Positions 2,399 to 63,033 of a stretch of DNA of 64,000 nucleotides are shown here, one piece after another. Within the stretch, counting starts at the first letter, position 1; each line of letters opens with the position of its first letter. The notes beneath the pieces are model-generated. The model ran no database searches. It saw nothing but the letters and a program-made list of their open reading frames with translations, and had not been told where the DNA came from. Source of the DNA: Anaerolineales bacterium (GTDB lineage Bacteria; Chloroflexota; Anaerolineae; Anaerolineales; E44-bin32); the NCBI GenBank assembly GCA_034430425.1, contig DAOUEK010000007.1:1090-65089 (forward strand), read 5' to 3'. A program made the translations under genes and the position numbers.

Positions 2399-2579
2399 AA
2401 TCTCTACTCCACGCGTCCTTCCAGCTGCATTGTACTGGCGCAATGCAATCCGGTCAACGCGGCGATATGCTTGCTTCCCAGGAATTAGATTTTCTACATG
2501 ATATTGATTAAATCAGGTCAGGTTTACAAGGCCGCATGCCGGTTGTCACGCAGCCAGAAAGATTGCCCTCAATTTGATA

Positions 2580-3901: not shown

Positions 3902-3986
3902 CGTGAAATGGACTCTAACGTTTTACGACCTGGGATACAAGGCTTTGTTGATAACAACTTCTATGCATGGTGCAATTGAATCCGGA

Positions 3987-4697: not shown

Positions 4698-4700
4698 GCC

Positions 4701-5486: not shown

Positions 5487-5489
5487 GGA

Positions 5490-6449: not shown

Positions 6450-6473
6450 GTGAAAAACCCTCCACTTTTCGAT

Positions 6474-6905
6474 TTAGCCCTCATCCTGGCAAGCGGCACA
6501 CAGACCAAACAACGTCAGGTGATTGGGGTCAACGTAGAAATTCGTTTCAGAAGCAACACTTTGTACGATTTGGGCGATGATATTCGGATCGATGTCGAAA
6601 ACCGCATGGCACTGCCTGCAGACCAGGTGTCCGTGTGGGTGATGCGGGTCGCGCATCGCAAAGAGGGCCGGGTTGGAACCATCGTTAAAAAAATCGACCA
6701 TCTCGGCTTCATGCAGCACTTCGACCGTGCGGTATACCGTGGCCAGGTTTAATCCAGGCAATTTTCTCTGCACATCAGCGTAGATATCTTGTGCGCAGAG
6801 GTGGCCATCTTTATGTGCGATGGTCTCCAGGATCACTGCACGCTGCGGCGTGACCCGGTACCCTTTCGATCGAAGTTCGTTTGCCAATCGCTCACCACAA
6901 GACAT
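6474..6905 (-). CDS. Fur-family metalloregulator (Nur/Zur-like by context)
   Basis: RVTPQRAVIL, LATVYRT, HHPHGHLVCRQC and C-terminal GLCAAC. Start set to ATG 6905 with AAGGAG RBS; the ORF-track N-terminal extension is probably spurious. Confidence 0.9.
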   Translation of the reverse strand: MSCGERLANELRSKGYRVTPQRAVILETIAHKDGHLCAQDIYADVQRKLPGLNLATVYRTVEVLHEAEMVDFFNDGSNPALFAMRDPHHPHGHLVCRQCHAVFDIDPNIIAQIVQSVASETNFYVDPNHLTLFGLCAACQDEG

Positions 6906-7096
6906 GTGCAGCTCCTTGCAGTTGCAAATTTTCGCAGATAGAATATCATTCTCCTCCCACCAAGTCAAGCGATGGCGGAATATAATCACCCTTAATCCAG
7001 GGACATCAGACGGGGTTCCACGGTACAATGGTAGGATATTAGAACCAAGTGCCCCAGAAAGGTTGGGAAGAAATTGCAAGTGTTAAGGAGTCATTC

Positions 7097-9213: not shown

Positions 9214-10812
9214 ATGATCACCGCCAGAGAACTGCTGAAACAAGGCAAGCGCGATGAAATATGGGAGATGTATTGTGGATTTCTCGATTTGCGGCTTCCT
9301 GAATTTATAGAAATCCAACGGGAATTGCTGCTCGAACAAATTCAATTGCTCAGTCAGTGTGAGTTGGGGAGAAAATTACTCGGCAACCAAATCCCCCAAA
9401 GCGTAGCCGCTTTTCGCGAGAGCGTACCCTTGACCACATATGAAGATTACGAACCGTATCTATCGGAAAAGAATGAAGACGTTATGCCGAGCGAGATATT
9501 CGTTTGGGCGCGCACATCTGGAAAAACTGGCGGAGATACGTTCAAATGGGTTCCGTATTCGCGCAGTATGTATGAGCAGTTCGGTCGCCGGGTAATAAGT
9601 GCCATGCTCGTCGGCTCATGCAAGAACAAAGGTGAAGTACGACTCGAAAACGGAGATATTCTGCTGATGACCACAGCACCCCCTCCCTATATCTCCGCTT
9701 TTGTAAGTCGTTCAGCAGAGGAGCAAGCACCGGTGAGATTCATTCCATCACTCGCAGAGGGCGAAAAAATGGATTTCCAGGATCGCATCGAGAAGGGCTT
9801 TGAACTCGCCATCGTGGAAGGCATGGACTATTTCTACGGTTTGGCGAGTTTATTGGTGAAAATCGGCGAGCGCTTCGAACATGGTTCGGGCAGCATCTCA
9901 TTCAGCCGCAGCATGCTCAAACCCAACGTGCTCCTACGCCTTATAACTGGATTCCTCAAAGGGAAATTCAACCGCAGAGCGCTGCGGCCAAGTGACATCT
10001 GGAAACTCAAGGGAATCATGACCGGCGGAACCGATACCGATATTTACAAGGACCGTATTGAAAAATATTGGGGAATAAAACCACTCGAGGGTTATGGCTC
10101 GACGGAGGGCTTTGCCCTTGCCATGCAATTGTGGAACTTCAAAGGAATGACCCTCTATCCCGACACCAATTTCTACGAGTTCATCCCCTACGAAGAACAC
10201 AGCAAGAACAAAAAGGACCCTTCCTATACCCCAAAAACTATTCTCCTGGACGAACTACAACCCGGCATTTACGAGCTGGTCTTTACCAATTTCCACGGCG
10301 GAATCTTCACTCGCTATCGGATATTTGATTTAATCGAAGTGATTTCCCTGCGCGACGATGAACTCGATATCGATATTCCACAAATCCGATTCTACTCACG
10401 CGCTGACGACGTGATCGACCTCGCCGGAATGGTCCGTCTAACCGAAAAAACGATCTGGTACGCCATGGAATCCTCAGGTGTTCACTACGAAGATTGGACG
10501 GCCAGAAAAGAAGAGTTGAATGGTGAACCACTCCTGCATATTTACTTCGAAGAAAGTCGTCCCAACAACCGATCGTTGGAGGAGATCAAATCATCCATCA
10601 ACGAGGAACTCATGAAAGTAAGCAGTGAATATGCGGATCTGATAACCATGCTCGGTGGTGATCGCTTGAAATTAACCAGGCTGCCAACGGGCGCATTCGC
10701 CCACTATATGGAAGAACAAAAACAAGCCGGCGTCGATATGGGCATTCTCAAACCATCACGCATGCAGCCAGGCGAAGAGGCGATTCGCCGACTGATGCAA
10801 AGCATAGGATAA
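9214..10812 (+). CDS. GH3-family (ANL adenylate-forming) acyl-amido synthetase-like protein
   Basis: PLTTYEDY, TSGKTGG..KWVP, YGSTEG, FYEFIP, YELVFTN..G..RYRIFD motifs typical of the GH3 family. Confidence 0.85.
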   Translation: MITARELLKQGKRDEIWEMYCGFLDLRLPEFIEIQRELLLEQIQLLSQCELGRKLLGNQIPQSVAAFRESVPLTTYEDYEPYLSEKNEDVMPSEIFVWARTSGKTGGDTFKWVPYSRSMYEQFGRRVISAMLVGSCKNKGEVRLENGDILLMTTAPPPYISAFVSRSAEEQAPVRFIPSLAEGEKMDFQDRIEKGFELAIVEGMDYFYGLASLLVKIGERFEHGSGSISFSRSMLKPNVLLRLITGFLKGKFNRRALRPSDIWKLKGIMTGGTDTDIYKDRIEKYWGIKPLEGYGSTEGFALAMQLWNFKGMTLYPDTNFYEFIPYEEHSKNKKDPSYTPKTILLDELQPGIYELVFTNFHGGIFTRYRIFDLIEVISLRDDELDIDIPQIRFYSRADDVIDLAGMVRLTEKTIWYAMESSGVHYEDWTARKEELNGEPLLHIYFEESRPNNRSLEEIKSSINEELMKVSSEYADLITMLGGDRLKLTRLPTGAFAHYMEEQKQAGVDMGILKPSRMQPGEEAIRRLMQSIG

Positions 10813-10822
10813 TATTCGAGAT

Positions 10823-13498
10823 ATGTATTGGGGAATTAACACCGTCATTCCTCTGCTTGCCGCGCTGGCCTACGGCGCATTACTCACCATCGTTAGTCGC
10901 GCCAGGCCATTAACCAATGCCAGACGCGCATTCCGCGTTTACCTGCTGGCCATGTTCTTCTGGTCATTTGGCTCGTTCGTTAGCCACAGCGGCTTTGGCA
11001 ACACCTCCCACTGGGCGCGCCTGTTGTCCACAGCCGCGATTACTGCGCCGCTCACCATTTTCTACTTCGTCGAAAACACCCTGGATATTACGCACAAATG
11101 GGACCACTGGGCTTACCTCGTGGGTATTATCAATGCCGCACTCGCTCTCTTTACGAATCTCGTAGCGCCTTCGGCCGATATCTTAAACGGGGATTTGACG
11201 ATTGCACGCGGCTCGCTGGTCTATGTCGTAGCCATTCCAGGGTATGGATTGTTCATATACAGCCTGGTCATGCTTATCCAACGTTTTCGACAGTCCACAG
11301 ATCCTATCGAACACAACCGACTGCGCTATCTGATCTCCGGCACGACAATCGTGATCCTTACAACACTGGTCAACTTCACCGATCTGGCCAAATACCCAAT
11401 TGATATCGCAGCAAATCTCATCAACGCGATGCTCATTTCGTACGCCATCATCCGCCACGAATTGCTGGACATCAACATCGTCATCCGCAGAGGATTGTCG
11501 TACAGCACATTGATTCTCATCCTGGCCGCCACTTATGTTCTTCCCGTCATTTTCTATGATGTCCTCCATATTGAACTCGAGGTCAGCCAAACTGCGACCA
11601 GATTTACACTATCGTTCATCATTGCCTCCCTTGTTGCCATTGCCTCACACGCCCTCTACGGCAGGATTCGAGAACGCATCGATCGGTTTTTTTTTCGTGA
11701 ACGCTATGATGCCTACAAAGTCATCCAAGAACTGGGGGAGCAAATCACAGGCACACTTGATTTCGATCAAATCGTCTCCTCAATGCTGGATCGCCTCGTC
11801 GAAACCCTGCATCCAAAATGGGTTGACTTATTGCTCAAGGACCCGTCGACGGGTGATTTCCACCCAACAGCGTCAAGAGGTCTGGATGAAACGCTATCCG
11901 AATTTCACATGCGTGCAGATCACCCGATCTGCCGTTGGTTAGGTCGAGAAAACAGGATCTTAACCGCGCAGCAGTTACGTATCCATGCGTATTTCACCGG
12001 TATTTGGAATTTAGAAAAGGAGCAGCTTGAAAGACTCTCGCCCAATCTTTTCGTCGCCTTGCGTGTAAAAGACGGACTTAGCGGAATCTTGCTGATCGGG
12101 CCAAAGAAATCCGATGAGACGTACAGCCTCGAAGATATCGATCTCTATATAACCTATGCCAATCAGGTCTCTGTCGCTTTAGACAACGCTCATCTTTTTA
12201 AAGCGATCAATGCGCGTCTGGCCGAACAAATCGCCCTGCTCGAGATCGGCATCAGCCTGGCGCGCGCCTCCAATCTGGACGACATCCTGCAGCTGGTCGT
12301 CAAACACGCCTGTCCCACAGATACACCTACCGCCAAAGCGACCATTCACCTCATCGACCACGACAGCCAGCGTCTGCTGCCGCGCGCCGTTTCCCAATCG
12401 AGCGGTGAACCCGCCCAGGCCGTAGGCTTCGATCCCCGTCAAGGTATCGCCGGACGCGCCGTTCAAGAAAAGCAACTCATCTATGTGCCGGATGTGAACA
12501 AGGCACCCGATTTTGTCAACACGCAGGAGAATTTCAAGTCCCTGGTTGTAGTACCGCTCATCATCGAGGACATTCCGGAAGGCACGCTCAGTGTGACCAG
12601 CCCCCATATCGATGCCTTCGATGAAGACTTGATCCGTCAATTAACCTCTCTCGGCAACCAGGCCGCAATCGCCTTGCGCAAGGCCCAGATCACCGACAGC
12701 TTGCGAAAATCAAACGCCGAATTGGAACAACGCTCGAAAGAACTGGAAGCCAGCATCGAGGAGTTGAAGTCCACACAGCGGCAACTCGTTCAGGCCAGCA
12801 AATTGGCTTCCATGGGTACGCTTACCGCAGGAATAGCACATGAAATCAACAACCCCCTGGCCGGCATCAAACTCTTCGCGCAAAACACCAGACGTGCCCA
12901 AAACGAAGGTCGTCTCGAAACCGAGAAAATGCTTGAAAACATGGAAAAAATCAGCGCACTCGTTGACAAAGCTGCAAAGATCATCGAACACCTGCGCACC
13001 TTTTCCCGACAAGCCTCCGGCGACATGAAGTTGATCGGCGTAAATAAAGCCGTTGAGGACTCACTCAGTATGCTTCTCGAGCAATTGAAACTGCAGAACA
13101 TCGAAGTCCTTTTACAACTTGAAGAAAACCTTCCTCAAGTGCGCGGCGATATCAATCAGATCGAACAAGTCGTACTCAACCTGATCACCAACGCCCGTGA
13201 CTCTCTCGATAAAATTGAAGACAAGAAAATCTCGCTGCGCACATACCAAGACGACGAGTCGGTCGTCATTGAAGTCACTGACTCTGGGAGTGGAATCTCG
13301 CCTGATATTCTGGAGAACGTGTTCGATCCATTCTTCACTACCAAACCCGTCGATAAAGGAACAGGTTTGGGCTTATCGATCAGTCACGGGATCGTAGAAC
13401 TTCATGGCGGAGAAATCGAAGTTGAAAGTGAACCTGACAAAGGGTCCACATTCCGGATTAAATTACCCGCCGCGGAAGATGTAACAGGAAACGATTGA
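10823..13498 (+). CDS. Membrane sensor histidine kinase (N-terminal 7TM, two GAF domains, HisKA, HATPase; NtrB-like)
   Basis: Hydrophobic N-terminal third, GAF regions, [39 protein letters not shown]. Confidence 0.92.
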
Positions 13499-14205
13499 TG
13501 CAAGAGACAGCGCATATCCTGGTTGTAGATGACGAGCCTTCCGTTCGTGAAGGACTCAGCGATATGCTTTGCATTTGCGGCCATATCATCACCTGCGCCA
13601 ACGATGGCCAGGAAGGCCTGGGCCTGTTTCATAAAGCCCTCGAACGAGATGAGCTGCCTCCGTTCGATATTCTCATATTTGACATCAAAATGCCCCATAT
13701 GTCCGGGCTGGAGTTGATGGAGCGCGTCGTCAAGCTGGATCCGGAGATTCCCATCATCATCATCACCGGACACGGCGATTCACACACGGCCACCTACGCT
13801 CTGGCCGGCGGCGCCTATGATTACATCACCAAACCACTCGAACCCGATCTCGTGCTTGATGCAGTTACCCGCGCCCTGGCCATCGGCCGCTTGAAACGAC
13901 GCTTTAAAAGAATCATCCAAAATACCGGCGTCATCGGAGCGATCACATCCGGAATCGCCAACGAATTGGACACACCCCTGAACACGATAACGCGTTCTGC
14001 CGAAGAACTCTCCAAACATCTCAATCAAATCAAGCACCTCACCACGTTAACCTTACAGGCAGATGGGTCGCCAGAAGCCAATATCCCCATCGCAGATATC
14101 GACATGGACCCCGCATACAAACAAATTGAAACCATCACCCGCTCCGTACTACATTGCATTCGATTGCTCGAGGCGCTAAATATCCCTCAACCCCAGGACG
14201 ACTGA
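13495..14205 (+). CDS. Response regulator: receiver plus degenerate HisKA-like helical domain
   Basis: ILVVDDE, FDIKMP and YITKP receiver motifs; C-terminal GIANELDTPL resembles an H-box without His. ATGA overlap with the kinase. Confidence 0.85.
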   Translation: MMQETAHILVVDDEPSVREGLSDMLCICGHIITCANDGQEGLGLFHKALERDELPPFDILIFDIKMPHMSGLELMERVVKLDPEIPIIIITGHGDSHTATYALAGGAYDYITKPLEPDLVLDAVTRALAIGRLKRRFKRIIQNTGVIGAITSGIANELDTPLNTITRSAEELSKHLNQIKHLTTLTLQADGSPEANIPIADIDMDPAYKQIETITRSVLHCIRLLEALNIPQPQDD

Positions 14206-14596
14206 CTAGATACCCGAAAGACGAAAAACAGTTGTATATAATGGATCATGACGAATAGAAAAGCAGCTTTGCGCGGGAGCTATCCGTGCAGGCCTGATTG
14301 CCTCTCAGAAGCAAAACATGCGCGGTCACATTCGATATTTTTACACAGGATGACTTACCAAGAATTGGGTGACTTTCCCCACTAGGCGGGTCAACATTGT
14401 AACCTTCATGATTCTATGGAATACTAACCGCCAGCGCGGAGCTGAATTAACTCGCCAGTGCGGGAAAATTTGTATTGCGTTTCCCCTGGCCGGCGTTCAA
14501 GATAATGTAAAAATGAAGGGGAAAACGCGCAGAAGACAGGATAATAAAGACATAACACCCCCATAACCTAACCTTCGACCTTAGGAGGAAGACACA

Positions 14597-14932
14597 ATGG
14601 AAAAAATAGTGATCAATGTGCCATCCATGTATGCGGATCACCATGTTCTATCTGTCAGGAACGCGCTCGACGGCCTCGAGGGAATCGAAGATCTCTATGC
14701 CAGTTCGGCATGGAAACAACTGCTGATTACTTTTGACCCCAAGAAAATCAAACAAGCAAAGATCGAAGAAGCAATTATTGAAGCAGGGTACCCAGTCGAC
14801 GGTGCCGAACCAGCAGCGTTGGTTACCGCGAACGATATCAAGCGAGACCCGCAATGGCAAAAGCTCGGGTCTCGCTCCACGGAAACAAACATCGCGGATC
14901 TGAAGATGTCAGGCGAATTTCGTCGGTATTAA
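14597..14932 (+). CDS. HMA/CopZ-fold protein with non-canonical MYADHH motif, first gene of the CODH/ACS operon
   Basis: Pattern V.SM...HV..V..AL..LEGI...ITFDP...I..AI.EAGYPV matches CopZ; strong AGGAGG RBS; 9 nt before cooS. Confidence 0.8.
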   Translation: MEKIVINVPSMYADHHVLSVRNALDGLEGIEDLYASSAWKQLLITFDPKKIKQAKIEEAIIEAGYPVDGAEPAALVTANDIKRDPQWQKLGSRSTETNIADLKMSGEFRRY

Positions 14933-14941
14933 CCCAGGAGG

Positions 14942-16945
14942 ATGACAGCGATGGCAAAGAAAATGAGAACACCTGAAGAAGCGAGTCAAGATCAAGCCAC
15001 GATAAACATGCTTGCGTTTGCCCAGGAAATGGAATACGAGACTTCATTTTCCCGCGCAGATTCTATGGCCCCCTGCCCCATCGGCAGTGATGGAATCTGT
15101 TGTAAGGTTTGCGGAATGGGGCCATGTCGTCTGGTGAAGGATGGCCAGACCGGGATTTGCGGTGCAACCGTTGAGACCGTCGGGGCACGCAATTTCGCCC
15201 GTATGGTTGCCGCTGGCGCCGCAGCTCACTCCGACCACGGCCGTGATCTGGCCTACACACTATTGGCGGCTGCCGAAGGTCACGCTCCGGATTACCAGGT
15301 GCGGGACCCCGCTAAATTGAGAGAAATGGCCCATTATCTCGATGTTGAGGTAGATGGCAAATCATTGGAAGAACTCACTCTCGAAGTCGCCCGAAAAGCA
15401 CTGGAAGAATTCGGCAAGCCAACTGGTGAGGTCGCCTACGTCAAACGCGCACCTGAGAAACGACAACAAATTTGGCACGATCTGGGAATTACACCCCGCA
15501 ATGTCGATCGTGAAATCGTTGAGATCATGCACCGCACGCACGTCGGCAACGACCAGGACGCAGAACATATTCTTGACCAAGCCTTGCGTGCTGCACTGGG
15601 TGATGGATGGGGCGGATCGATGCTCGCCACCGATCTTTCCGATGTACTCTTCGGCACGCCCGGCCCGGTCCTTACCGAATCGAACCTGGGAGTTTTCCAG
15701 CCGGATGAAGTCAACATCGTCATCCACGGCCACGAGCCCACGCTCTCCGAGATGATCGTGGCCGCCGCGCAGGACCCGGAATTGATCGAGTATGCGAAAA
15801 CCAAGGGCGCCAAAGGCATCACCCTGGGCGGCATCTGCTGCACGGCAAACGAGACATTGATGCGTCAGGGCGTACCGCTGGCAGGCAACTTCCTGCAGCA
15901 GGAATTGGCCATCCTAACCGGAGCCGTCGAAGCCATGGTGGTCGATATCCAATGCATCATGCAGGGCATCGTGAAGCTCGCCGAACAATTTCACACCGAG
16001 GTGATCACCACATCACCCAAAGCGAAAATCACCGGCGCCACGCACATGGAATTCGATGAACACCGGGCCATGGAAATCGCCAAGGAAATCGTGCGAACTG
16101 CTTGCGACCGTTATCCCGAGCGAGGCGAAACTAAAATCCCCGATGAGCATACGCCCCTCATTCCTGGCTTTTCACATGAATACATCAACTATGCCCTGGG
16201 TGGTCTCTACCGCGGTTCGCTCCGGCCGCTTAACGACGCGATCGCTTCCGGGCGCATTCGCGGTGTCGTAGCCAATATCGGCTGCAACAACGCCCGCGTC
16301 TGCCACGACAAACTTCACCGCGAAGTTGTCACCGAGTTCATCAAGAACGACGTGCTCGTGGTCGAGACCGGCTGCGGCGCCATCGCCAGCGCCAAGCAAG
16401 GGTACATGACCCCCGAAGCGGCACTCGAACACGCCGGTCCGGGTCTCCGGGAAGTCTGTGAAGCCGTAGGGATCCCTCCCGTGCTTCACATGGGTTCCTG
16501 TGTAGATAACTCTCGGATCTTGACCGTACTCGCCCAGATGGCCACAGAAGGCGGCCTGGGAGAAGACATCAGCGACATCCCCGCCGTGGGACTGGCACCG
16601 GAATGGATGAGCGAGAAGGCCATCTCCATCGCCACCTACTGCGTTGCTTCTGGCGCCTATGTCATCCTGGGACACTCCAGTCCCGTCTCGGGCATCGAAG
16701 AAGTCACACGCCTGATCACCGACGGTTGGGAAGAGAAAGTCGGCGGCCGGTTGGAATTCTGCAACGCCAGCGACGAAATCGTTCGCCGAAGTCTGGCGCA
16801 CATCGATAAAAAGCGCGCCGACCTCGGACTGCCCGAATATGACCCAAGCAAATGGGGGAAGAGTGGTGATTGGAGAATCCATGAACTTGTGGAAATGCCG
16901 TTGCCCGAACGTATTGAAGCCGCATACGGCAACCAGGCGAAGTAG
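14942..16945 (+). CDS. cooS: Ni-dependent carbon monoxide dehydrogenase catalytic subunit (AcsA/CooS)
   Basis: D/B-cluster CPIG..GICCKVCGMGPC..ICGA; C-cluster ligands in HGHEP, GICCTANE, DIQC, IGCNN, TGCG, GSCVDN. True start may be ATG 14951. Confidence 0.97.
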   Translation: MTAMAKKMRTPEEASQDQATINMLAFAQEMEYETSFSRADSMAPCPIGSDGICCKVCGMGPCRLVKDGQTGICGATVETVGARNFARMVAAGAAAHSDHGRDLAYTLLAAAEGHAPDYQVRDPAKLREMAHYLDVEVDGKSLEELTLEVARKALEEFGKPTGEVAYVKRAPEKRQQIWHDLGITPRNVDREIVEIMHRTHVGNDQDAEHILDQALRAALGDGWGGSMLATDLSDVLFGTPGPVLTESNLGVFQPDEVNIVIHGHEPTLSEMIVAAAQDPELIEYAKTKGAKGITLGGICCTANETLMRQGVPLAGNFLQQELAILTGAVEAMVVDIQCIMQGIVKLAEQFHTEVITTSPKAKITGATHMEFDEHRAMEIAKEIVRTACDRYPERGETKIPDEHTPLIPGFSHEYINYALGGLYRGSLRPLNDAIASGRIRGVVANIGCNNARVCHDKLHREVVTEFIKNDVLVVETGCGAIASAKQGYMTPEAALEHAGPGLREVCEAVGIPPVLHMGSCVDNSRILTVLAQMATEGGLGEDISDIPAVGLAPEWMSEKAISIATYCVASGAYVILGHSSPVSGIEEVTRLITDGWEEKVGGRLEFCNASDEIVRRSLAHIDKKRADLGLPEYDPSKWGKSGDWRIHELVEMPLPERIEAAYGNQAK

Positions 16946-16959
16946 AGAGGGATAAAATT

Positions 16960-19254
16960 ATGTCACGTTACATTGCAACTCGCGCAATTCGAGGCGCTAA
17001 CGCCATCGTAGACGAAGCCGAGAAGGAACTCACCAAGGCGATTGCTGAGAAGGGTGGCGATACACCCGTTGCCTTCCCCAACACAGCCTATTATTTGCCC
17101 GTGATTCTCGGAATGCTGGGACACGAGGTCAGCAAATTGGCGGACCTCGAATTTGCACTGGACCACGCAAAAAGCTTACTCCACCCGATACCCGACGAAT
17201 CGCTCTGGACACCGTACCTCGGCGAGACACTGGACTCAGGTATGGCCACATTGCTCGCTGAAGAGATCATCGAGGGTGTCCGTTTCGTCTATGGACAAGA
17301 ACCCCAGCCCTACCCCGGGCTCGAATTGGCCGGCTCCACATCCTTCACCAGCCCCGACGCTGGAGGCAATGGCTCCAGCCCTAACGGAAATGGGTATCTC
17401 AATGGACCTATCGACGATATCCAACTGCGTTCTTGGGGAATCCAATTGGTTGATGGACGCATGCCGGGTTTCGCGGCCATCGCCGGCGCGGCGCATTCCA
17501 ATGAGGCCGCCGTCGCCATCGTTCGTGAGCTTCAAAAAAGGAACATCCTCACCTTTCTCGCGGGCAACGTCAATGGGCGTTCGATCATCGATCAATTGGT
17601 CGAAGAAGACGTGGAGATGGGCTACGACACATATATCGTTCCCTTCAGCCGCGACACCATCGGGGCCATCTACCCGCTGGGCTTCGCCACGCGATCCGCG
17701 CTCACCTTCGGGGGCATGAAGGGTGGTCAATGGCGAGATATCCTGCTCTACAATAAATTCCGAGTCTTCGCTTTCGTGATTGCCCTGGGCGAGGTCGACG
17801 ATCTTAAGTACGCCACAGCCGCCGGCGCGATTTCGTACGGATTCCCCGTAATCGCCGACACGGTGATCCCCGAAATTTTGCCCACCGGCGTGACGCGCTA
17901 CGAACATGTTATTTCCATGCCCTGGAACGAAATCGAAGGTGATACCGAAGAAGAGAAAGCCGCCAAGCTGGTCCAAAAAGCCATCGAGATACGCGGTGTT
18001 AAGGTGAAGATCAGCGAGGTCCCGGTTCCCGTTCCTTACGGATCGGCCTTCGAAGGCGAAGTGGTACGCAAGGCCGACATGCGCGTCGAGTTCGGCGGTA
18101 AACACAGCCGTGCGTTCGAATATCTCTACATGGATGATATGGACGCTGTCGAAGATGGAAAGATCGAAATCATCGGAGACGGTTTTGAAAAACTTGAAGA
18201 ACAGGGCAGTATGGATCTTTGCATTCTGGTTAAAGTCGCCGGACGCAAAATGGAGAAGGACTTCGAGCCGGTTCTCGAACGCCAGATTCACTACTTCGTG
18301 AATGGGGGATCCGGCATCCAGCACATCGGTCAGCGAGACATCACCTGGATCCGCATCAGCAATACGGCTGCCGAAAAAGGCTTCACCTTGAAGCACTTCG
18401 GCGACATCTTGCACGCGCGCTTCCATGATGATTTCGGATCGATCGTCGACAAGGTCGAAGTCGCCATCGTCACCGAACCCAAGGCGTATGCTGAGTGGCT
18501 GGAAAAAGCCCGCGCTGCCTACGACGAACGCAATCAACGCATCGGCGCAATGGTCGACGAGAGTGTGGAGACATTCTACTCCTGCACACTCTGCCAATCC
18601 TTCGCGCCGGACCACGTCTGCATCGTCAGTCCCGAGCGGCTCGGTCTGTGCGGCGCCTACAACTGGTTGGACTGCAAGGCCTCCCACCAGATCAACCCCA
18701 CCGGCCCGAACCAACCCATCAAGAAAGGCAATGACCTCGATCTGCAAAAAGGGTATTTCACCGGCATCAACGAGTACGCCGTTCAGGCATCACACGGCAG
18801 TGTCAACGAAGTCGCCATGTACTCCATCATGGAGAACCCGATGACGGCATGTGGCTGCTTTGAATGCATCGCCATGCTCATCCCTGAAGCCAACGGCATC
18901 ATGATCGTCAGCCGGGAGGACACCAGCATGACGCCAGCAGGCATGACCTTCTCGACTCTGGCGGGTGTGGCCGGCGGCGGACTGCAAACACCGGGTGTGA
19001 TGGGACACGGTAAGTTCTACATCACCAGCCCCAAATTCATTTCCGCCGACGGCGGATTCAAACGTGTGGTTTGGATGTCCTCCGTTCTGAAAGAACAGAT
19101 GGCGGAAGAACTCACCCAGGTGGCTGAGCGAGAAGGTGATCCGGGTCTGCTCGACAAGATCGCCGATGAAACCGTCTGCACCGATGTGGAAGGATTGCTG
19201 GAACACCTTCAAAAGAAGGGACATCCAGCACTCGAGATGGAACCAATGATGTAA
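16960..19254 (+). CDS. acsB: Acetyl-CoA synthase subunit (bacterial type with N-terminal domain)
   Basis: FPNTAYYLP; A-cluster ligands CTLCQSFAP, LCGAYNWLDC, TACGCFEC. Confidence 0.97.
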   Translation: MSRYIATRAIRGANAIVDEAEKELTKAIAEKGGDTPVAFPNTAYYLPVILGMLGHEVSKLADLEFALDHAKSLLHPIPDESLWTPYLGETLDSGMATLLAEEIIEGVRFVYGQEPQPYPGLELAGSTSFTSPDAGGNGSSPNGNGYLNGPIDDIQLRSWGIQLVDGRMPGFAAIAGAAHSNEAAVAIVRELQKRNILTFLAGNVNGRSIIDQLVEEDVEMGYDTYIVPFSRDTIGAIYPLGFATRSALTFGGMKGGQWRDILLYNKFRVFAFVIALGEVDDLKYATAAGAISYGFPVIADTVIPEILPTGVTRYEHVISMPWNEIEGDTEEEKAAKLVQKAIEIRGVKVKISEVPVPVPYGSAFEGEVVRKADMRVEFGGKHSRAFEYLYMDDMDAVEDGKIEIIGDGFEKLEEQGSMDLCILVKVAGRKMEKDFEPVLERQIHYFVNGGSGIQHIGQRDITWIRISNTAAEKGFTLKHFGDILHARFHDDFGSIVDKVEVAIVTEPKAYAEWLEKARAAYDERNQRIGAMVDESVETFYSCTLCQSFAPDHVCIVSPERLGLCGAYNWLDCKASHQINPTGPNQPIKKGNDLDLQKGYFTGINEYAVQASHGSVNEVAMYSIMENPMTACGCFECIAMLIPEANGIMIVSREDTSMTPAGMTFSTLAGVAGGGLQTPGVMGHGKFYITSPKFISADGGFKRVVWMSSVLKEQMAEELTQVAEREGDPGLLDKIADETVCTDVEGLLEHLQKKGHPALEMEPMM

Positions 19255-19329: not shown

Positions 19330-19389
19330 CGCCCAGATCACCGGTCTCTATGCCCTTTCTTGTCCATTACGCAGGAGGATCGAATTCCA

Positions 19390-20361
19390 ATGACAGTTGA
19401 AATCCCTAAGGTAAAGTACACCGGCAGCGTGCGCCAGGTAACCCTTGGCGCCACAGCCGACGACGGCGGAACGCGGAAAAGCACGTTAACCATCGGCGGC
19501 GAGACGACTATGCCGTTTATGCTGCATGAGGGCAACCTGCCCAACCGTCCAGCCCTCGCGCTGGAAATTCGCGATCGCAAACCGGAGGATTGGTCCGAGT
19601 TGCTCCATGAAATCTGGGGAGATGCGATCGACGATCCGGCCGCCTGGGCCAGGGCAGCCGAAGAAGCTGGCGCCGACTTGATCTATCTAAAACTCAGCGC
19701 CACGACCAGCGATGGCAATCCAAATACCCCGGAAAACGTAAAGAAGGTTGTGCGGCAAGTCCTGGAAGCCACAGGACTACCCCTGGCTGTGATCGGACCC
19801 GGGCAAGCCGACCTGGACAATGACTTGATCGTCGCCGTTGCCGAAGAAGGTAAGGGCGAACGCTTGCTGCTCGGTCTCTGTGAGGAGAACAATTACCGCA
19901 CCATCGTCGCCGCCGCCCTGGCGCACGATCACCTCGTCCAATCAAAGACCCCCATGGACGTCAATCTCTCCAAGCAGTTGGTTATCCTGATTCACGACAT
20001 GGGATTGCCGCTCGAACGCATCGTCATGGATCCAACCACAGGCGCATTAGGATACGGAATTGAATACGGATATTCCGTCATGGAGCGCCTTCGCCTGGCT
20101 GCACTGGGGGGCGATGCGATGACTCAACAACCGATGATCGTTACACCAGGTGAGGAAACCTGGAAAGTAAAGGAAGCCAAAGTCGGAGAAGGTGTCCCGG
20201 AAACATGGGGAGACTGGAAGCAGCGTGCGCTTGATTGGGAAGCCATTACGGCCACTGCAATCATTCACTCGGGAGCCGATCTCGTCGTGTTGCGACATCC
20301 CGAAACGCTCACACGCGTTCGTCACCTGATCGACGATCTGATCCAAACCCAAGCGGCCTGA
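19390..20361 (+). CDS. acsD: Corrinoid iron-sulfur protein small subunit
   Basis: IGGETTMPF, MDPTTGALGYGIEYGYSVMERLRLAAL.GD.MTQQP. AGGAGG RBS precedes ATG 19390. Confidence 0.95.
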   Translation: MTVEIPKVKYTGSVRQVTLGATADDGGTRKSTLTIGGETTMPFMLHEGNLPNRPALALEIRDRKPEDWSELLHEIWGDAIDDPAAWARAAEEAGADLIYLKLSATTSDGNPNTPENVKKVVRQVLEATGLPLAVIGPGQADLDNDLIVAVAEEGKGERLLLGLCEENNYRTIVAAALAHDHLVQSKTPMDVNLSKQLVILIHDMGLPLERIVMDPTTGALGYGIEYGYSVMERLRLAALGGDAMTQQPMIVTPGEETWKVKEAKVGEGVPETWGDWKQRALDWEAITATAIIHSGADLVVLRHPETLTRVRHLIDDLIQTQAA

Positions 20362-20379: not shown

Positions 20380-21723
20380 ATGGCATTAACCGGACTAGAG
20401 ATATACAAACTACTACCACAAACCAATTGCAAGGATTGCGGTTTCCCCACCTGTTTGGCATTCGCCATGAAATTGGCAGCTAAGCAAGCCTCATTGGATG
20501 ACTGCCCTCACGTAAGCGACGAAGCCAAAGCCAAACTTGAATCAGCTTCCGCACCACCGATCCGCCTGATCGAACTAACGAATGCAGATGGTGAAGTGAA
20601 AGTTGGGAACGAGACGGTTCTCTTTCGGCATGAGAAAACGTTCTATAACCGAAGTGGTCTCTTCTTAAGACTAAAGGACGATGAAGGCATTGATGCGCTC
20701 AAGGACAAAGTTACGGAGGCATGCGCCTTCCACGTGGATTACGTTGGCATTGACCTTTACCTGGACGGCTTTGCCGTCGAGGCTTCTTCGGCGGACCCGG
20801 CAACCTTTGCTGCGGCAGTGAAAGCCGTACACGAAACCGGCAAGAAGCCGCTAATCCTGATCGCCGCTTCAGCAGAACTGGCAAAGGCAGGGCTGGAAGC
20901 AGCAGAAGGTGCGCGGCCACTACTCTACACGGCCGATACAAGCAACTGGGAAGCCATGGCTGAAATCGCCAGAGAGAAAAGTGTTCCCCTGGCTGTGCGC
21001 GCCGAAACACTTGATGGCCTGGCGGAACTGACCCAACAGCTAAAAGCGGCCGGCGTTGAAGACCTCGTGCTGGATCCTCTGCTTGGTGGATATCATGATT
21101 CACTCCACAAACTCACCGCCATCCGACGTTTGGCACTCAAGGAAACATTTCGACCCCTTGGATACCCGATCATCAGTTTCCCCGGAGCTGTATCTGAAGC
21201 CGATGAAACGCTGCTCGCCACCGAACAGATTGCAAAATACGGCGGGTTGATCGTCCTCAATTCTTTCAATCCTGCCAGCCTGTACGCCTTGCTGGTGCTG
21301 CGGCAGAACATCTACACCGACCCGCAGAAACCGATCCAGGTTCAACCCGGTTTGTACGAGATCAACGATCCCAAACCCGACTCACCGCTTCTGGTGACGA
21401 CCAACTTCTCGATCACCTACTTCTCGGTCGCAAATGAAGTCGAGGGTGCTGGAAATCCCGGATGGTTGCTGGTCGCCGACTCGGAAGGAATGAGCGTGCT
21501 TACCGCCTGGGCGGCGGGTAAATTCGATGCGGAGCGAATCGCAAAGGATATCAACGCTTTCAACGTCGCTGATAAGGTCGGACATAAAAAGCTGGTCATT
21601 CCAGGTCACGTCGCCACCATCTCAGGCGAGTTAGAAGAGGAGTTACCAGGCTGGGAGATCATGGTCGGGCCGCGCGAAGCTGTTGATATTAAAGGGTACC
21701 TCGACAGCATGTGGCATAATTGA
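20380..21723 (+). CDS. acsC: Corrinoid iron-sulfur protein large subunit
   Basis: LPQTNCKDCGFPTCLAFA..DCP [4Fe-4S] motif, RQNIYTDPQKP, TTNFSITYF, VLTAWAAGKF. Confidence 0.96.
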   Translation: MALTGLEIYKLLPQTNCKDCGFPTCLAFAMKLAAKQASLDDCPHVSDEAKAKLESASAPPIRLIELTNADGEVKVGNETVLFRHEKTFYNRSGLFLRLKDDEGIDALKDKVTEACAFHVDYVGIDLYLDGFAVEASSADPATFAAAVKAVHETGKKPLILIAASAELAKAGLEAAEGARPLLYTADTSNWEAMAEIAREKSVPLAVRAETLDGLAELTQQLKAAGVEDLVLDPLLGGYHDSLHKLTAIRRLALKETFRPLGYPIISFPGAVSEADETLLATEQIAKYGGLIVLNSFNPASLYALLVLRQNIYTDPQKPIQVQPGLYEINDPKPDSPLLVTTNFSITYFSVANEVEGAGNPGWLLVADSEGMSVLTAWAAGKFDAERIAKDINAFNVADKVGHKKLVIPGHVATISGELEEELPGWEIMVGPREAVDIKGYLDSMWHN

Positions 21724-21865: not shown

Positions 21866-23794
21866 GTGGCAACCCATAAAGTGCACTTTCTGCCGATGGA
21901 TATAAGCGTTGAGGTGCCCACCGGGGCACTCATCACGGACGCCATCCACCAAGCCAAAATTGAAATACTGCAGCCTTGCGGCGGCCAGGGGCGCTGCGGT
22001 CGCTGCGCTGTCATCATCGAAGGCGAGGGCGCCCGAAGGCGTTCTACCATCCGCATCTCTGCGGAAGACGTCGCTGCCGGATACGCACTCGCTTGCCAGA
22101 CGGTCATCGAAGGCGGTCTTACGGTCACGATTCCGGAACAGGAAAAAATCGAGCGACGTCTGGTGACGGATAAATCTGCACGAAAAGTCGAGCTGCCCTT
22201 CGAATACGATCCGGCCGTACATCAAACCATACGTGTTTTTCAACTCGAACTATCACAGCCCTCGATCAACGACAGCCTGGACGACCTCAGCCGATTGCGT
22301 CAGGCACTCAAAGAACAAGGCGTGATTCATTTGGACGCACCCTTATCCGTACTGCAGCGTTTGGGAGAAACGCTGCGTCAGGCTTCCTGGTCGCCATGGG
22401 TGGTGGTCGATTTCGATGCACCAGGGAGTGAAGCAGCGGAATTGATCGATATACAGCCTGATCCCATTCAGCCCTTCGGCCTCGCTATCGACATTGGCAC
22501 AACAACCGTCACGGCATTTCTCGTCGACCTGATCAGCGGTGAAGTAAAAAACTCGGCCTCGGAGTACAACGGGCAGATCGCCCGCGGCGAAGACGTGATC
22601 TCCCGCATCGTATTCGCCGGCAAGGAAGACGGTCTGCAAACACTCAGCGCTTTGGTACGCGAGACCATCGACACCTTGCTCGACCGCCTGCAAAAACGCA
22701 CCGGGGTTTCCCCACAACAGATCTATAAGGTCAGTGTATCGGGAAACACCACGATGATGCACCTTTTTCTCGGCATCCCGCCGGAAACCATTCGTCTCAT
22801 GCCCTACGTTCCCACCGCCAACCAGCCTTCTTTCTTTCGCGCCCAGGAATTGGACCTAAATATCTACCCGCTGGCATCGGTAGACTGCCTGCCTGCCGTT
22901 GCTTCGTACGTCGGTGCAGACATCACCGCCGGGGTGCTGGCAAGTAAACTGTCTGACGCCGTAGACCTGACTCTCTTCATCGACGTGGGAACGAACGGAG
23001 AAACCGTTCTGGGAACCAATGAATGGATGGTCACCTGCGCTTGCTCGGCGGGTCCGGCTTTTGAAGGCGCTGGCGTTGTCGACGGTATGCGGGCCACACT
23101 GGGCGCCATTGAAGAGGTGTGGGTGAACACGCACACTTTCGAACCCACTATTCGCGTGATCGGGGGTGAAAAACCGACAGGGATTTGCGGCTCCGGCTTG
23201 ATATCCCTCCTGGCGGAAATGTTCGTCACCGGCGTCGTGGACCGCGCCGGCAATTTCAAGCTGGACATCGACACCCCGCGTGTACGAAAAGGGAAATACG
23301 GCCCGGAATACGTCGTCGCCTGGGGCAAAGACACCCAGCATGGCAACGACATTACCTTGAAAAAGGTGGATGTAGATAATCTCATGCGCGCCAAAGCGGC
23401 GATATATGCCGGCTTCAGCGTCTTGGCCAGCAGCGTCGGCGTCGATCTGGACGACGTACAGCAAATGCTGATCGGCGGCTCATTTGGTCAATATATCAAC
23501 GTCGAGAACGCCATCAAGATCGGTTTGCTCCCCGATCTCCCCTGGGACAGATTCCACTTTCTCGGAAACACTTCCGTTCTTGGAAGTTACATGGCGCTCC
23601 TCTCGCATGAGGCACGCGCACAAATTCTCTCCATTGCCGAAAAGATGACGTACGTGGAACTCTCAGCGGACAACACGTTTTTCGATGCCTTTACCGCCGC
23701 GCTTTTCCTGCCGCACACCGAGATCGATCGTTTTCCCAGTGTGGCTGAAATTTGGGAGCGGCATACGACAAGAAACGGATCTGGCAGCGAATAA
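21866..23794 (+). CDS. acsV: ASKHA-domain reductive activator of corrinoid protein (RACo/AcsV)
   Basis: N-terminal [2Fe-2S] CGGQGRCGRC..LACQ, DIGTTTV, DVGTNGE, CSAGPAFEG, GICGSGLI. Confidence 0.93.
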   Translation: MATHKVHFLPMDISVEVPTGALITDAIHQAKIEILQPCGGQGRCGRCAVIIEGEGARRRSTIRISAEDVAAGYALACQTVIEGGLTVTIPEQEKIERRLVTDKSARKVELPFEYDPAVHQTIRVFQLELSQPSINDSLDDLSRLRQALKEQGVIHLDAPLSVLQRLGETLRQASWSPWVVVDFDAPGSEAAELIDIQPDPIQPFGLAIDIGTTTVTAFLVDLISGEVKNSASEYNGQIARGEDVISRIVFAGKEDGLQTLSALVRETIDTLLDRLQKRTGVSPQQIYKVSVSGNTTMMHLFLGIPPETIRLMPYVPTANQPSFFRAQELDLNIYPLASVDCLPAVASYVGADITAGVLASKLSDAVDLTLFIDVGTNGETVLGTNEWMVTCACSAGPAFEGAGVVDGMRATLGAIEEVWVNTHTFEPTIRVIGGEKPTGICGSGLISLLAEMFVTGVVDRAGNFKLDIDTPRVRKGKYGPEYVVAWGKDTQHGNDITLKKVDVDNLMRAKAAIYAGFSVLASSVGVDLDDVQQMLIGGSFGQYINVENAIKIGLLPDLPWDRFHFLGNTSVLGSYMALLSHEARAQILSIAEKMTYVELSADNTFFDAFTAALFLPHTEIDRFPSVAEIWERHTTRNGSGSE

Positions 23795-23862
23795 ACTCGT
23801 TGTAGAATCGATTTATAAAGACGATTACACAAGGATTTGTTGAAGCTTACTAGGTGGTAGAA

Positions 23863-24630
23863 ATGACAAAAATCATTGCAATCGCCGGCAAAGGCGGCAC
23901 GGGGAAAACAACGCTCGCTGCGCTGCTCATTCAAACATTGAGTCAACGCCTGCCCGGTCCGCTTCTGGCGATCGATGCAGACCCGGCCACGAATTTGCAT
24001 ATGGCACTCGGAGTGCCCAGGCCGGAAACGGTTGGAGAAATCCGTGAATTGATGTCCGAAACAGCGCAGGCCGGTGAGCTCGGCGTTTCGATCAGCCGCC
24101 ATGATTATCTAAATCGCGAGGTGCGCCTGGCCATCGAAGAGGGAGAAACCATCGATTTGCTCGCCATGGGGCGGCCGGAAGGCCAGGGTTGTTACTGCGC
24201 CGTTAACCACATGCTGCGGCAAATCGTGGACGAGATCGGCCGCACATACGACACCATCATCATCGACAACGAGGCCGGTATGGAACACATCAGCCGACGC
24301 ACGACTCGCGATGTCGATCTTCTCTTGCTCATCACGGATCCCACCTTGCGCGGTGTGCGCACTGCAGCTGAAATGGCACAATTGGCAGAAACGCTTGAAG
24401 TAAACGTCAAACGCACACAATTGATCGTAAATCGGGTTAAAGGGGAAATGCCGCAGCCATTGCAGGATGCCATCGATGAGTTAGGTCTCGAGATCGCGGC
24501 ACTCATTCCTGCTGACGAGAATATCAACCGACTCGACGCACTGGGGATGCCGCTCGTGCAACTTAATGGAGATTCACCTGCCGCCCAAGCAGTAGAGCAA
24601 TTAATCGAACGGATTGTAAGCGAGCTCTAA
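23863..24630 (+). CDS. acsF: CooC/AcsF-type Ni-insertion ATPase
   Basis: IAGKGGTGKT, IDADP, GRPEGQGCYCAVN, DNEAGMEHISR; sits inside the acs cluster. Confidence 0.88.
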   Translation: MTKIIAIAGKGGTGKTTLAALLIQTLSQRLPGPLLAIDADPATNLHMALGVPRPETVGEIRELMSETAQAGELGVSISRHDYLNREVRLAIEEGETIDLLAMGRPEGQGCYCAVNHMLRQIVDEIGRTYDTIIIDNEAGMEHISRRTTRDVDLLLLITDPTLRGVRTAAEMAQLAETLEVNVKRTQLIVNRVKGEMPQPLQDAIDELGLEIAALIPADENINRLDALGMPLVQLNGDSPAAQAVEQLIERIVSEL

Positions 24631-24665: not shown

Positions 24666-25589
24666 ATGTACAAAATCGGAGAGAACATCCATATCGTCTC
24701 ACCGAAGGTGAAGGAAGCCCTCAAAGATCGCGATGGGGGATTCTTCGTCGACCTGGCCCGCCGGCAAAAAGAAAGCGGTGCGGATGTGATCGACTTAAAC
24801 ATCGGGCCGCGAAAGAAGGATGGCCCTGAAGTCGTTGATTGGCTGGTAGACTGCATGCAGGAAGCCGTTCCGGGCATGACCCTGAGTTTCGACACCACCA
24901 ATCTGGCGGCTATTGAAACAGGACTGAAACGAGTGGGATCGAACGCCATGGTCAACTCCACCTCCGCCGAAGAAGAACGCCTGGCGAACGTACCACCCCT
25001 GGCAGCGAAGTACGACGCAAAAATGATCGCACTGTGCATGGAGAAGAGCGGCATTCCCGTCAGTGCAGATGAGCGCGTTGGCATCGCCATGGAAAAGCTC
25101 ATTCCTCGTGCCCAGGAAGTGGGTATCCCGATGGAGAATCTGTATGTCGATCCATTGATCCTCACCGTTTCCGGATGCCAGGAATACGTGCCCGAATCGA
25201 TTGAGACCATTCGCATGTTGAAGATGGTCATGGATCCGCCGCCGATGACGACTGTGGGACTATCCAACGTATCCAACCAGGTTCCCAATGATATGCGTCC
25301 ACTCATCGATCGTGTATTTGTCGTCATGTTAATGGCCGTCGGCTGCGACTCGGCGATCCTCAATCCGCTTGACAAGAAATTGACCGACACCATCAAAGCC
25401 GTCGAGGTCCGCGATGAGAGCACGCCGGTCAAAGCCCTGAATCTGAAGATTTTCGACGCAGTAGCTGCCATGGAGGAACCGACCGAAGACTTGGTGGATA
25501 TGTCGGATCCTGACCAGGTTGAAATCTGGAAAACGGTCCAGATTCTACTCAACAAGGTTATTTACGCAGATTCGTATTTACGGCTGTGA
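24666..25589 (+). CDS. acsE: Methyltetrahydrofolate:corrinoid/Fe-S protein methyltransferase
   Basis: Pterin-binding TIM barrel motifs IGENI, DLNIGP, SFDT, VNSTS, DPLIL, GLSNVS; operon context. Confidence 0.9.
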   Translation: MYKIGENIHIVSPKVKEALKDRDGGFFVDLARRQKESGADVIDLNIGPRKKDGPEVVDWLVDCMQEAVPGMTLSFDTTNLAAIETGLKRVGSNAMVNSTSAEEERLANVPPLAAKYDAKMIALCMEKSGIPVSADERVGIAMEKLIPRAQEVGIPMENLYVDPLILTVSGCQEYVPESIETIRMLKMVMDPPPMTTVGLSNVSNQVPNDMRPLIDRVFVVMLMAVGCDSAILNPLDKKLTDTIKAVEVRDESTPVKALNLKIFDAVAAMEEPTEDLVDMSDPDQVEIWKTVQILLNKVIYADSYLRL

Positions 25590-29744: not shown

Positions 29745-30009
29745 CCTCTTTCTGAATTCATTTTACCGCTGCGCAATCAATGTTCTAGGTCAACGTAGAA
29801 AACCATTAGACGAGTTTCAGCTGATATCGGACTATTGTACAATAACGAAAAGCTTCCATTTGATTGTGCAGTAGGGTAATGGAGCTTATTGTCGTTTCCA
29901 GATCTACCAGTAGCTCTTTCGGATTTACAGATCTTCAACCTTGCATCTGTAGAACAACAATGAGCATATACACAGGATGGTTTGAGATATCCTCCAGGAG
30001 AATGCAATC

Positions 30010-60180: not shown

Positions 60181-60190
60181 GGAGATGTCT

Positions 60191-62253: not shown

Positions 62254-63033
62254 ATGAAACTCGCCATCACCGGAAAAGGTGGTGTGGGCAAAACCACGCT
62301 CACTTCCCTACTAGCCTATGCCTACGCCGAAAAAGGCTTTCAAGTTCTGGCGATCGACGCCGATCCCGCCCCCTGTCTGGCCGAAGCGCTGGCCTTCCCC
62401 AAAAAACTACTGGAGGGATTGACCCCCATCGCCCGCATGGACGACCTGATCTACGAACGCACCGGCGCCAAGCCGGGTGCAACCGGAGGCTACTTCAAGC
62501 TCAACCCGCGCGTGGACGACATCCCGGATCAATTCTCGGCCGTGCATCGCGGCATCCGTTTACTGGAGATGGGCGCCGTAGAGATGGGTGGATCGGGCTG
62601 CATCTGTCCCGAGAGCGCCATCCTGCGCGCCCTGACCACCCACATTCTCCTGCAGCGCAACGAAGTCATCCTGCTCGACATGTACGCCGGCGTGGAACAT
62701 CTCGGCCGCGCCACGGCGGCCGCCGTCGACGCCATGCTGATTGTGGTCGAACCGACCAAACGCAGCCTGACCACCGCCGAACAGATCAAATCGCTGGCGG
62801 AGGACATCAAACTGAAGAACCTATACATCGTGGGCAGCAAGGTACAGGGGGAAGAAGATCGGGCCTTCATCGAAAGCAACAGCCCCGGGCTGCCGGTGAT
62901 CGGGCACCTGCCGCACGATCCGCATGTGCGCCAGGCCGATCGGGACGGCGCGGCGCTCTATGATCTGGCACCTGAGATGGCGAAAGCCACACAGGCCATT
63001 ATGCAGGCGTTGGAAGCGAAGCGCGAGGACTAA
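62254..63033 (+). CDS. cooC: CO dehydrogenase Ni-insertion ATPase CooC (second paralog)
   Basis: GKGGVGKTT, IDADP, KLNPRVDDIP, GSGCICPES, AGVEHLGRAT. Confidence 0.92.
   Translation: MKLAITGKGGVGKTTLTSLLAYAYAEKGFQVLAIDADPAPCLAEALAFPKKLLEGLTPIARMDDLIYERTGAKPGATGGYFKLNPRVDDIPDQFSAVHRGIRLLEMGAVEMGGSGCICPESAILRALTTHILLQRNEVILLDMYAGVEHLGRATAAAVDAMLIVVEPTKRSLTTAEQIKSLAEDIKLKNLYIVGSKVQGEEDRAFIESNSPGLPVIGHLPHDPHVRQADRDGAALYDLAPEMAKATQAIMQALEAKRED

Follow-up and report, generated by a model that had tools for sequence, protein, structure and literature searches.

What does the small gene at the head of the carbon monoxide dehydrogenase/acetyl-CoA synthase (CODH/ACS) operon of an Anaerolineales bacterium encode, and does its product handle nickel for the enzyme encoded directly behind it? 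The gene lies in a stretch of 64,000 nucleotides from assembly GCA_034430425.1 (contig DAOUEK010000007.1, positions 1,090 to 65,089, forward strand), which is called the window here and to which all coordinates refer. An earlier note on this stretch had described the product as a Cys-free protein of the heavy-metal-associated (HMA) fold bearing M-Y-A-D-H-H and had proposed it as a candidate nickel chaperone; the translation, a Pfam HMA match and the AlphaFold core bore out the description. For this protein, named DHH-HMA here, linkage and gene order with cooS-acsB proved essentially absolute. We tentatively assign a probability of about 45% to the reading, suggested by sequence and gene context, that DHH-HMA is a dedicated CODH/ACS accessory protein that acts as a carrier of a divalent metal, most likely Ni, and as a sensor in the minority of forms fused to a helix-turn-helix (HTH) domain.

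The DHH-HMA gene and its product

The gene, its ribosome-binding site and the parts of its product are located as follows.

14597..14932, forward strand: DHH-HMA gene, first gene of the CODH/ACS operon; open reading frame (ORF) of 111 aa, product ending RRY before the stop codon
14583..14588, forward strand: Shine-Dalgarno sequence AGGAGG of the DHH-HMA gene, 8 nt before the ATG, read from the sequence
14597..14794, forward strand: HMA core, residues 1–66, beta-alpha-beta-beta-alpha-beta (Pfam HMA, AlphaFold2, Foldseek)
14627..14644, forward strand: M11-Y-A-D14-H15-H16 motif, candidate metal or ligand site at the loop 1/helix 1 junction (alignments)
14795..14929, forward strand: conserved C-terminal tail, residues 67–111 (..IKRDPQW..R.T.TN.AD..MSGEFRRY; alignment)

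The translated protein contains no Cys and only two His residues (H15 and H16), none of them in the tail, and its residues 11–16 read M-Y-A-D-H-H in place of M-x-C-x-x-C. A word-indexed homology search with the window protein returned 105 clusters of the same length (nearly all 103–111 aa) with 50–87% identity to it, from Chloroflexota metagenome-assembled genomes (MAGs). The dN/dS values against four orthologues were 0.10–0.21, and core and tail were alike where measurable. The same-length clusters and these low ratios indicate that the ORF is a real gene, beyond chance, and the gene, tail included, is under strong purifying selection. The strong ribosome-binding site and the C-terminal tail of about 45 aa that had been noted earlier were both recovered, the former as AGGAGG 8 nt before the ATG and the latter as the conserved residues 67–111.

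Linkage to cooS-acsB

A scan of one genome per species detected DHH-HMA relatives in 502 genomes, of which the best 80 loci were examined. From a metagenome scan with the alignment of one subfamily (type c, described below), the 80 best loci were likewise examined; 75 were evaluable, the other five contigs ending <300 nt from the DHH-HMA gene. In every one of the genome loci (80/80), cooS followed the gene immediately on the same strand, with acsB next wherever the contig continued; among the metagenome loci, the next gene was cooS in 75/75 evaluable cases. Less similar members, which rank below these best loci, might be arranged differently. The position directly 5' of cooS-acsB was also occupied by variant forms, namely a type b member (P0183), a Cys-rich fusion (P0109) and three type c members (P0244, P0256, and P0331). 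An HTH fusion (P0102) was found at the same position on four contigs, where 150 nt separate it from the downstream cooS and the locus contains no stand-alone copy. Depending on the locus, cooC lay within the operon, upstream of it, or on the other strand; the adjacency of DHH-HMA and cooS was constant. In 179 extracted copies, the distance from the DHH-HMA stop to the position equivalent to cooS codon 1 was mostly −20 to +40 nt, suggesting translational coupling of the two genes.

The earlier note had suggested looking for co-occurrence of HMA proteins carrying MY[AG]DHH with cooS/acsB, and the outcome was strongly positive, both in the two scans and for all sampled variants. It had also held that homologues lying mostly away from CODH genes would speak against its proposal; such a distribution was not observed. 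Only two exceptions to the linkage were seen, both tail-less and on one short contig each: P0192, in which the DHH-HMA domain is fused to a methyltransferase domain, and P0210, a bare DHH-HMA domain of 69 aa adjoining gcvH/lplA.

An intact ORF of 531 aa (P0231, L085-L088) joins the DHH-HMA domain to a CooS-derived polypeptide and was present on five contigs from independent samples; its locus adjoins a GH94 phosphorylase and is not within an acs operon. The CooS part lacks residues ~246–402 (~157 residues) and every C-cluster Cys, and reads HLGSYLDNGR as opposed to HMGSCVDNSR. P0231 resembles a decayed fusion of the DHH-HMA/cooS gene pair, either a pseudo-enzyme or a decaying relic, and we give it little weight.

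Fold and family-profile tests

Pfam HMA (PF00403) matched residues 5–65 of the window protein with 26.3 bits, a small margin over the gathering cutoff of 24.8, and was its sole Pfam match at E ≤ 0.01; many DHH-HMA relatives carry no precomputed HMA match. An AlphaFold model of the protein, built on 37 relatives, had a predicted local distance difference test score of about 90 at residues 1–66 and of 53–61 at tail residues 70–111. The modelled elements were strands 2–7, 30–36, and 41–46 and helices 14–24 and 53–62, with the last strand too short for listing by DSSP. Foldseek matches comprised MerP, CopZ and the metal-binding domains of P-type ATPases, with target TM values of 0.85–0.91 and root-mean-square deviations of 1.0–1.9 Å. 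In the profile alignment with ATP7B, “mtcqscv” paired with “myaDHHv”, placing Cys1 at Ala13 and Cys2 at His16, with Asp14 and His15 between them. By structure the window protein belongs to the HMA superfamily, whose defining CxxC it lacks.

The diagnostic features of known families were compared with the window protein in turn. At the two-Cys motif GMxCxxC of the HMA family it reads SMYADHH. Its best NCBIfam match was CopZ, and the NCBIfam models for CopZ, MerP (TIGR02052) and TIGR00003 scored 25–35 bits against cutoffs of 62–95 (NF033795, 35.4 against 91; NF033794, 25.4 against 95; TIGR00003, 31.4 against 62). It has neither the Cys2 nor the beta-barrel of CooT, HMA being its fold and its only Pfam match at the threshold above. 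With two His in all and none in its tail it differs from CooJ, it contains neither the P-loop nor the Cys of CooC/AcsF, and its N-terminus is an HMA strand and not the HTH of BldC-type regulators.

Motif, tail types and fusions in the DHH-HMA family

When 1.84 billion representatives were searched exhaustively with a profile, 2277 matched at E ≤ 1e-3, 297 of them at E ≤ 1e-10. Among the 150 best representatives, nearly every one had [ML][YWF][AG]DHH at residues 11–16. Asp-His-His was kept in 179/179 extracted copies (xx[AG]DHH), and D14, H15, and H16 were invariant in three alignments. In the alignment of window-type relatives, P9, G29, A35, A63, G64, W87, and R93 were invariant as well, M11, S36-S37-A38-W39, Y65, D84-P85, T97, and D101 were nearly so, and the C-terminus was conserved as MSGEFRRY.

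Three tail types were distinguished. Type a, to which the window protein belongs, ends MSG[ED]FR[RK]Y; type b is shorter and ends ..RMTQTHPAD; type c, the largest group (2793 matches at E ≤ 1e-5), comprises proteins of 122–133 aa that end ..FRHT..SF.Q..RPLWPCPGMG with an invariant Cys-Pro-Gly. The absence of Cys is therefore limited to the window tail type, and the Cys-Pro-Gly of type c is a plausible extra ligand.

An N-terminal BldC/excisionase-type HTH (NF033787, 66.5 bits) was present in about 12/150 of the best representatives at 50% identity (~8%), among all three tail types; P0102 and P0106 are examples. Three further representatives (P0109, P0139, and P0146; e.g., L095 5574–6257) carried an N-terminal Cys-rich domain of ~70 aa with the pattern CW..R...C..C....SCWE..C.CCAP..VTCDFC..YIEHR, for which no Pfam or NCBIfam match was obtained and the word-indexed homology search was empty.

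The organism names on named DHH-HMA records all belonged to Chloroflexota (Anaerolineae, Caldilineae, Thermoflexales, Ardenticatenaceae, Promineifilaceae, Aggregatilineaceae, and Chloroflexia). One locus labelled as a Methanosarcinales MAG (L041, JAIWHF010000047.1) carried a DHH-HMA gene with cooS and acsB each 80% identical to those of the window; it is probably a mis-binned Chloroflexota contig. Many DHH-HMA members bear the JGI label “copper chaperone CopZ”, which is a widespread misannotation.

Possible roles in CODH/ACS maturation and control

CODH/ACS requires three Ni per AcsA/AcsB pair. Ni is the obvious candidate for the metal of DHH-HMA because the enzyme needs it in its C- and A-clusters and because Asp/His ligands suit Ni(II) over Cu(I). 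Established coordination chemistry matches such ligands to Ni(II), Co(II), Zn(II), and Fe(II) and not to Cu(I); judged by this chemistry and the gene context, Ni is most likely the metal, and Zn, Fe(II), or Co may be.

In the mechanism that we propose, the Asp14-His15-His16 that replaces the Cu(I)-binding Cys pair of a CopZ-like scaffold at the same loop/helix-1 position forms an N/O site that would hold a divalent metal, most likely Ni(II), and whose remaining ligands would probably come from the second subunit of a dimer, the tail, or a partner protein. The conserved, unstructured tail would dock DHH-HMA on its client, either CooS or a CooS-CooC maturation complex, and ligand exchange would pass the metal on to be inserted into the C-cluster and perhaps also the A-cluster. 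CooC/AcsF would supply the ATP-dependent step, with stand-alone DHH-HMA acting upstream of or together with CooC, in the manner of CooT and CooJ in other lineages (PMC6006190). In the BldC-type HTH fusions, metal occupancy would set the transcription of the operon, following the logic of CopZ/CopY. Fold, invariant motif, purifying selection, operon position, and linkage to cooS-acsB are observed; that the protein binds metal, that this metal is Ni, that it is handed to CooS/CooC, and what the tail does are our inferences. The docking role of the tail fits because only tail-less DHH-HMA copies occur away from cooS. By analogy, the occurrence of the domain both alone and fused to a DNA-binding domain, as in known metal-binding modules, also counts in favor of this reading.

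Several points weigh against a metal carrier. H15 and H16 follow each other at the start of a helix, and the metal site may be incomplete in a monomer alone. To our knowledge, CODH Ni carriers use thiolates (the CxC of CooC and Cys2 of CooT) or His-rich tails (CooJ), never an Asp-His-His triad. The window itself encodes the two standard CooC-type ATPases for Ni insertion, and the DHH-HMA gene adjoins cooS and not cooC. For many CODHs CooC suffices for maturation, so that there is no known gap in the process, and HMA domains can serve as metal-free protein-interaction modules. Finally, AlphaFold2 gave the tail low confidence and left it without a confident placement in both type a and type c.

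The earlier note had reported that CooT and CooJ were absent from the window and had placed DHH-HMA in their role. No family match to either was obtained among ORFs of ≥90 aa, and the intergenic small ORFs, only part of which were profile-scanned, were unconvincing. No in-frame His-rich ORF was present anywhere in the window, His-rich stretches occurring only out of frame inside other genes. DHH-HMA could take the role of CooT/CooJ; with two CooC-type ATPases encoded in the window, it would be an added factor and not a substitute.

Another explanation, rather unlikely in our judgement, is that DHH-HMA is a sensor or regulatory module for Ni, another metal, or the state of CODH, which would control the expression or activity of CODH/ACS without any metal transfer, acting directly when fused to the HTH and by binding CooS or a regulator when stand-alone. 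It remains a live alternative because ~8% of the representatives are HTH-fused at the same genomic position. These fusions span all three tail types, P0102 takes the place of the stand-alone gene before cooS, and the DHH-HMA gene invariably opens the operon, adjoining the promoter region. However, >85% of the members have no DNA-binding domain, and the short gaps to cooS suggest expression coupled to that of an abundant enzyme, which would be unusual for a regulator; other regulators are already encoded upstream (a two-component system in the window and a PAS-GerE protein in L081-84). A chaperone role would not preclude a sensor role, as seen in CopZ/CopY and the archaeal TRASH-domain CopM/CopT.

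The invariant adjacency and order with cooS, with gaps in the coupling range, would likewise be expected of a stoichiometric small subunit or assembly factor, loosely comparable to the archaeal epsilon subunit CdhB, in which HMA core and tail would form a protein-protein module and Asp-His-His would hold a structural metal or none. Conserved yet unstructured alone, the tail resembles a typical segment that acquires its fold by binding a partner, and P0231 joins the two polypeptides in one ORF; it is weak as Rosetta-stone evidence because its CooS part is a decayed remnant. We consider a structural role of this kind improbable, as the HTH-fused and Cys-rich-fused forms are hard to square with it, structures of bacterial CODH/ACS do without such a subunit and the window CooS is canonical, and a triad kept without exception at the place where HMA proteins bind metal points to chemistry over packing.

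An ordinary copper chaperone CopZ, as in the JGI label and the best NCBIfam match, has next to no chance of being the right identification, and a CopZ or MerP identity was rejected: there is no Cys and the CxxC is replaced, the profile scores fall far below their cutoffs, no copA-type P-type ATPase occurred in the ~19 loci with Pfam-listed neighbours, no copper or mercury gene context was seen in the loci listed, and in about 170 loci the adjacent downstream gene was cooS.

Taken to its full extent, the reading of DHH-HMA as a metal carrier would make it a third class of CODH Ni carrier, built with Asp-His-His on a copper-chaperone scaffold and restricted to Chloroflexota CODH/ACS, and would also make it the Ni-sensing domain of BldC-type regulators, in a nickel circuit like that of CopZ/CopY. 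We regard this wider proposal as doubtful, though possible.

The CODH/ACS operon and its surroundings in the window

The remaining features of the operon and the second CooC-type gene are as follows.

14206..14596, forward strand: intergenic leader/promoter region, 391 nt, no ORF with a family match
14936..14941, forward strand: Shine-Dalgarno sequence AGGAGG of cooS; abuts ATG 14942, 9 nt before ATG 14951
14942..16945 (likely start 14951), forward strand: cooS/acsA, Ni,Fe-CODH catalytic subunit (TIGR01702, 608.7 bits; Prismane, 551 bits)
16960..19254, forward strand: acsB, acetyl-CoA synthase (NF040764, 962 bits; Pfam CODH_A_N, CdhC, ACS_CODH_B_C)
19360..20361, forward strand: acsD, corrinoid Fe-S protein small subunit (Pfam CdhD)
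20380..21723, forward strand: acsC, corrinoid Fe-S protein large subunit (Pfam FeS and CdhD)
21866..23794, forward strand: RACo, reductive activator of corrinoid protein (Pfam Fer2, RACo_linker, Raco_middle, RACo_C_ter)
23854..24630, forward strand: CooC/AcsF-type MinD-family ATPase with GCYC (CxC) motif (Pfam CbiA, translation)
24666..25589, forward strand: acsE, methyltetrahydrofolate:corrinoid methyltransferase (Pfam Pterin_bind)
62254..63033, forward strand: second CooC-type ATPase with GCIC motif, outside the operon (Pfam CbiA; CooC1 3KJE, E 3.9e-40)

The DHH-HMA gene and cooS share one reading frame. A gap of 9 nt between them had been noted earlier; this holds for the first ATG at 14942 and fails for the likelier start at 14951, which gives 18 nt. 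The start at 14951 is likelier because ATG 14942 abuts the AGGAGG, whereas ATG 14951 has a 9-nt spacer. The encoded CooS is canonical, with the C. autoethanogenum CODH/ACS (6YTT) as its closest solved structure and HMGSCVDNSR kept. No Rfam match was found in the whole window at gathering thresholds or in 14150–14650 at E ≤ 1, and a scan of the 391-nt leader for consensus promoters and terminators gave results not above shuffles.

The second CooC-type ATPase is clearly related to CooC1 of C. hydrogenoformans (the 3KJE match above). It lies 37 kb from the acs operon, with metV (58486–59172), metF (59191–60180), and an HdrC/B-like CCG protein (60107–61585) as neighbours. The ATPase within the operon (GCYC) is probably an AcsF-type paralogue. 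In several relatives (L081-L084, L096, and L098) one or two CBS-domain proteins are encoded between acsB and acsD, and in L096 AcsB and AcsD were called as one fusion of 1273 aa. Just upstream in L081-84 are an aldehyde:ferredoxin oxidoreductase, a CooC-like gene, and the PAS-GerE regulator.

Directly upstream of the leader, the forward strand encodes a GH3-family (acyl-amido synthetase-like) protein (9214–10812), a 7TM-GAF-GAF histidine kinase (10823–13498), and a response regulator (13495–14205) whose C-terminal ~110 aa have no family match. Only the closest relatives (L001, L003, and L004) have this trio conserved immediately before the operon. A metal-uptake and regulation cluster (1703–7079, reverse strand) lies about 8 kb upstream of the operon.

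1703–2443, reverse strand: DtxR-family repressor with FeoA domain
3987–4697, reverse strand: CbiO ATPase
4701–5486, reverse strand: CbiQ
5490–6449, reverse strand: CbiM fused to a CbiN/PDGLE domain
6474–7079, reverse strand: Fur-family regulator

This cluster could be a Ni or Co importer of the energy-coupling factor type serving Wood-Ljungdahl enzymes. Two paralogous giant flavin/Fe-S oxidoreductases (46257–50879 and 53411–57973, forward strand; 1540 and 1520 aa) are HdrA/GltD-like and contain Fer4_20, several Pyr_redox_2/NAD_binding_8, and Fer4 domains. A third multi-domain oxidoreductase of 1074 aa (31723–34947, forward strand) is followed by an MvhD/FlpD-like gene (35183–35704, forward strand). 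The large flavin/Fe-S oxidoreductases are probably electron-bifurcating partners of MetF or CODH. About 750 nt at 29745–30491 contain only short overlapping ORFs on both strands, with no family-matched ORF and no Rfam match.

Comparison with known systems

DHH-HMA shares with the HMA metallochaperones CopZ, Atx1, and MerP the fold, the conserved Met, Gly, and “AGY” scaffold positions, and the location of the motif at loop 1/helix 1; like it, they are small soluble proteins that are also found fused to other domains. It differs from them in lacking both Cys (Ala13 and His16 instead), in its invariant Asp14-His15-His16, and in an extra conserved tail of 35–65 aa, and it is linked to cooS-acsB, with no P-type ATPase or mer neighbour in the loci listed.

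CooT (about 65 aa) and CooJ resemble DHH-HMA as small non-ATPase proteins encoded with cooS and cooC. Like them, DHH-HMA is proposed to bind Ni and to feed CooC-dependent insertion. Both are accessory Ni-binding proteins of Rhodospirillum-type CODH maturation (PMC6006190), CooT being a small beta-barrel that depends on Cys2 and CooJ a dimeric coiled coil whose tail is rich in His (PMC6006190 and, in part, general background), and they have been reported only in clade E/F operons (PMC13056359). Neither has a sequence or fold relationship to DHH-HMA, which in contrast heads ACS-linked operons of Chloroflexota.

In CopY/CopZ of Enterococcus and the archaeal TRASH-domain CopT/CopM, regulator and chaperone share one metal-handling logic. 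There, as in the DHH-HMA family, one metal module occurs stand-alone and is attached to, or feeds, a DNA-binding regulator of the same operon. Those systems use copper and Cys ligands, whereas DHH-HMA is associated with a BldC/excisionase-type HTH and a predicted Ni-enzyme client. CdhB, the archaeal CODH/ACS epsilon subunit, is likewise a small protein encoded beside the CODH catalytic subunit, which it binds. CdhB has another fold and no sequence similarity to DHH-HMA (for which HMA is the sole Pfam match), is archaeal, is encoded after cdhA and not before it, and has no HTH-fused forms.

The main text of a genomic-context survey of 1376 [NiFe]-CODHs mentions neither HMA, CopZ, copper nor Chloroflexota (PMC13056359), and our literature searches found no paper on an HMA or CopZ-like gene beside cooS. 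The scaffold of DHH-HMA is the known HMA scaffold; its ligand set, tail, and client are new. It is probably an undescribed CODH/ACS helper that possibly handles nickel.

Significance

The Wood-Ljungdahl pathway has CODH/ACS as its key enzyme, and sediments, digesters, and the subsurface harbor Chloroflexota (Anaerolineae and relatives) in abundance. The route of Ni to the C- and A-clusters is understood only in a few model organisms, with CooC/AcsF and, in few clades, CooT/CooJ. The analysis corrects the widespread CopZ annotation of this family. If the proposed mechanism is true, a copper-chaperone fold would have been re-tuned to another metal through a ligand swap. DHH-HMA, which occurs in no fewer than 502 species-level genomes and in thousands of sequences from metagenomes, is a candidate for a missing maturation or control step of CODH/ACS and could matter for the heterologous production of the active enzyme.

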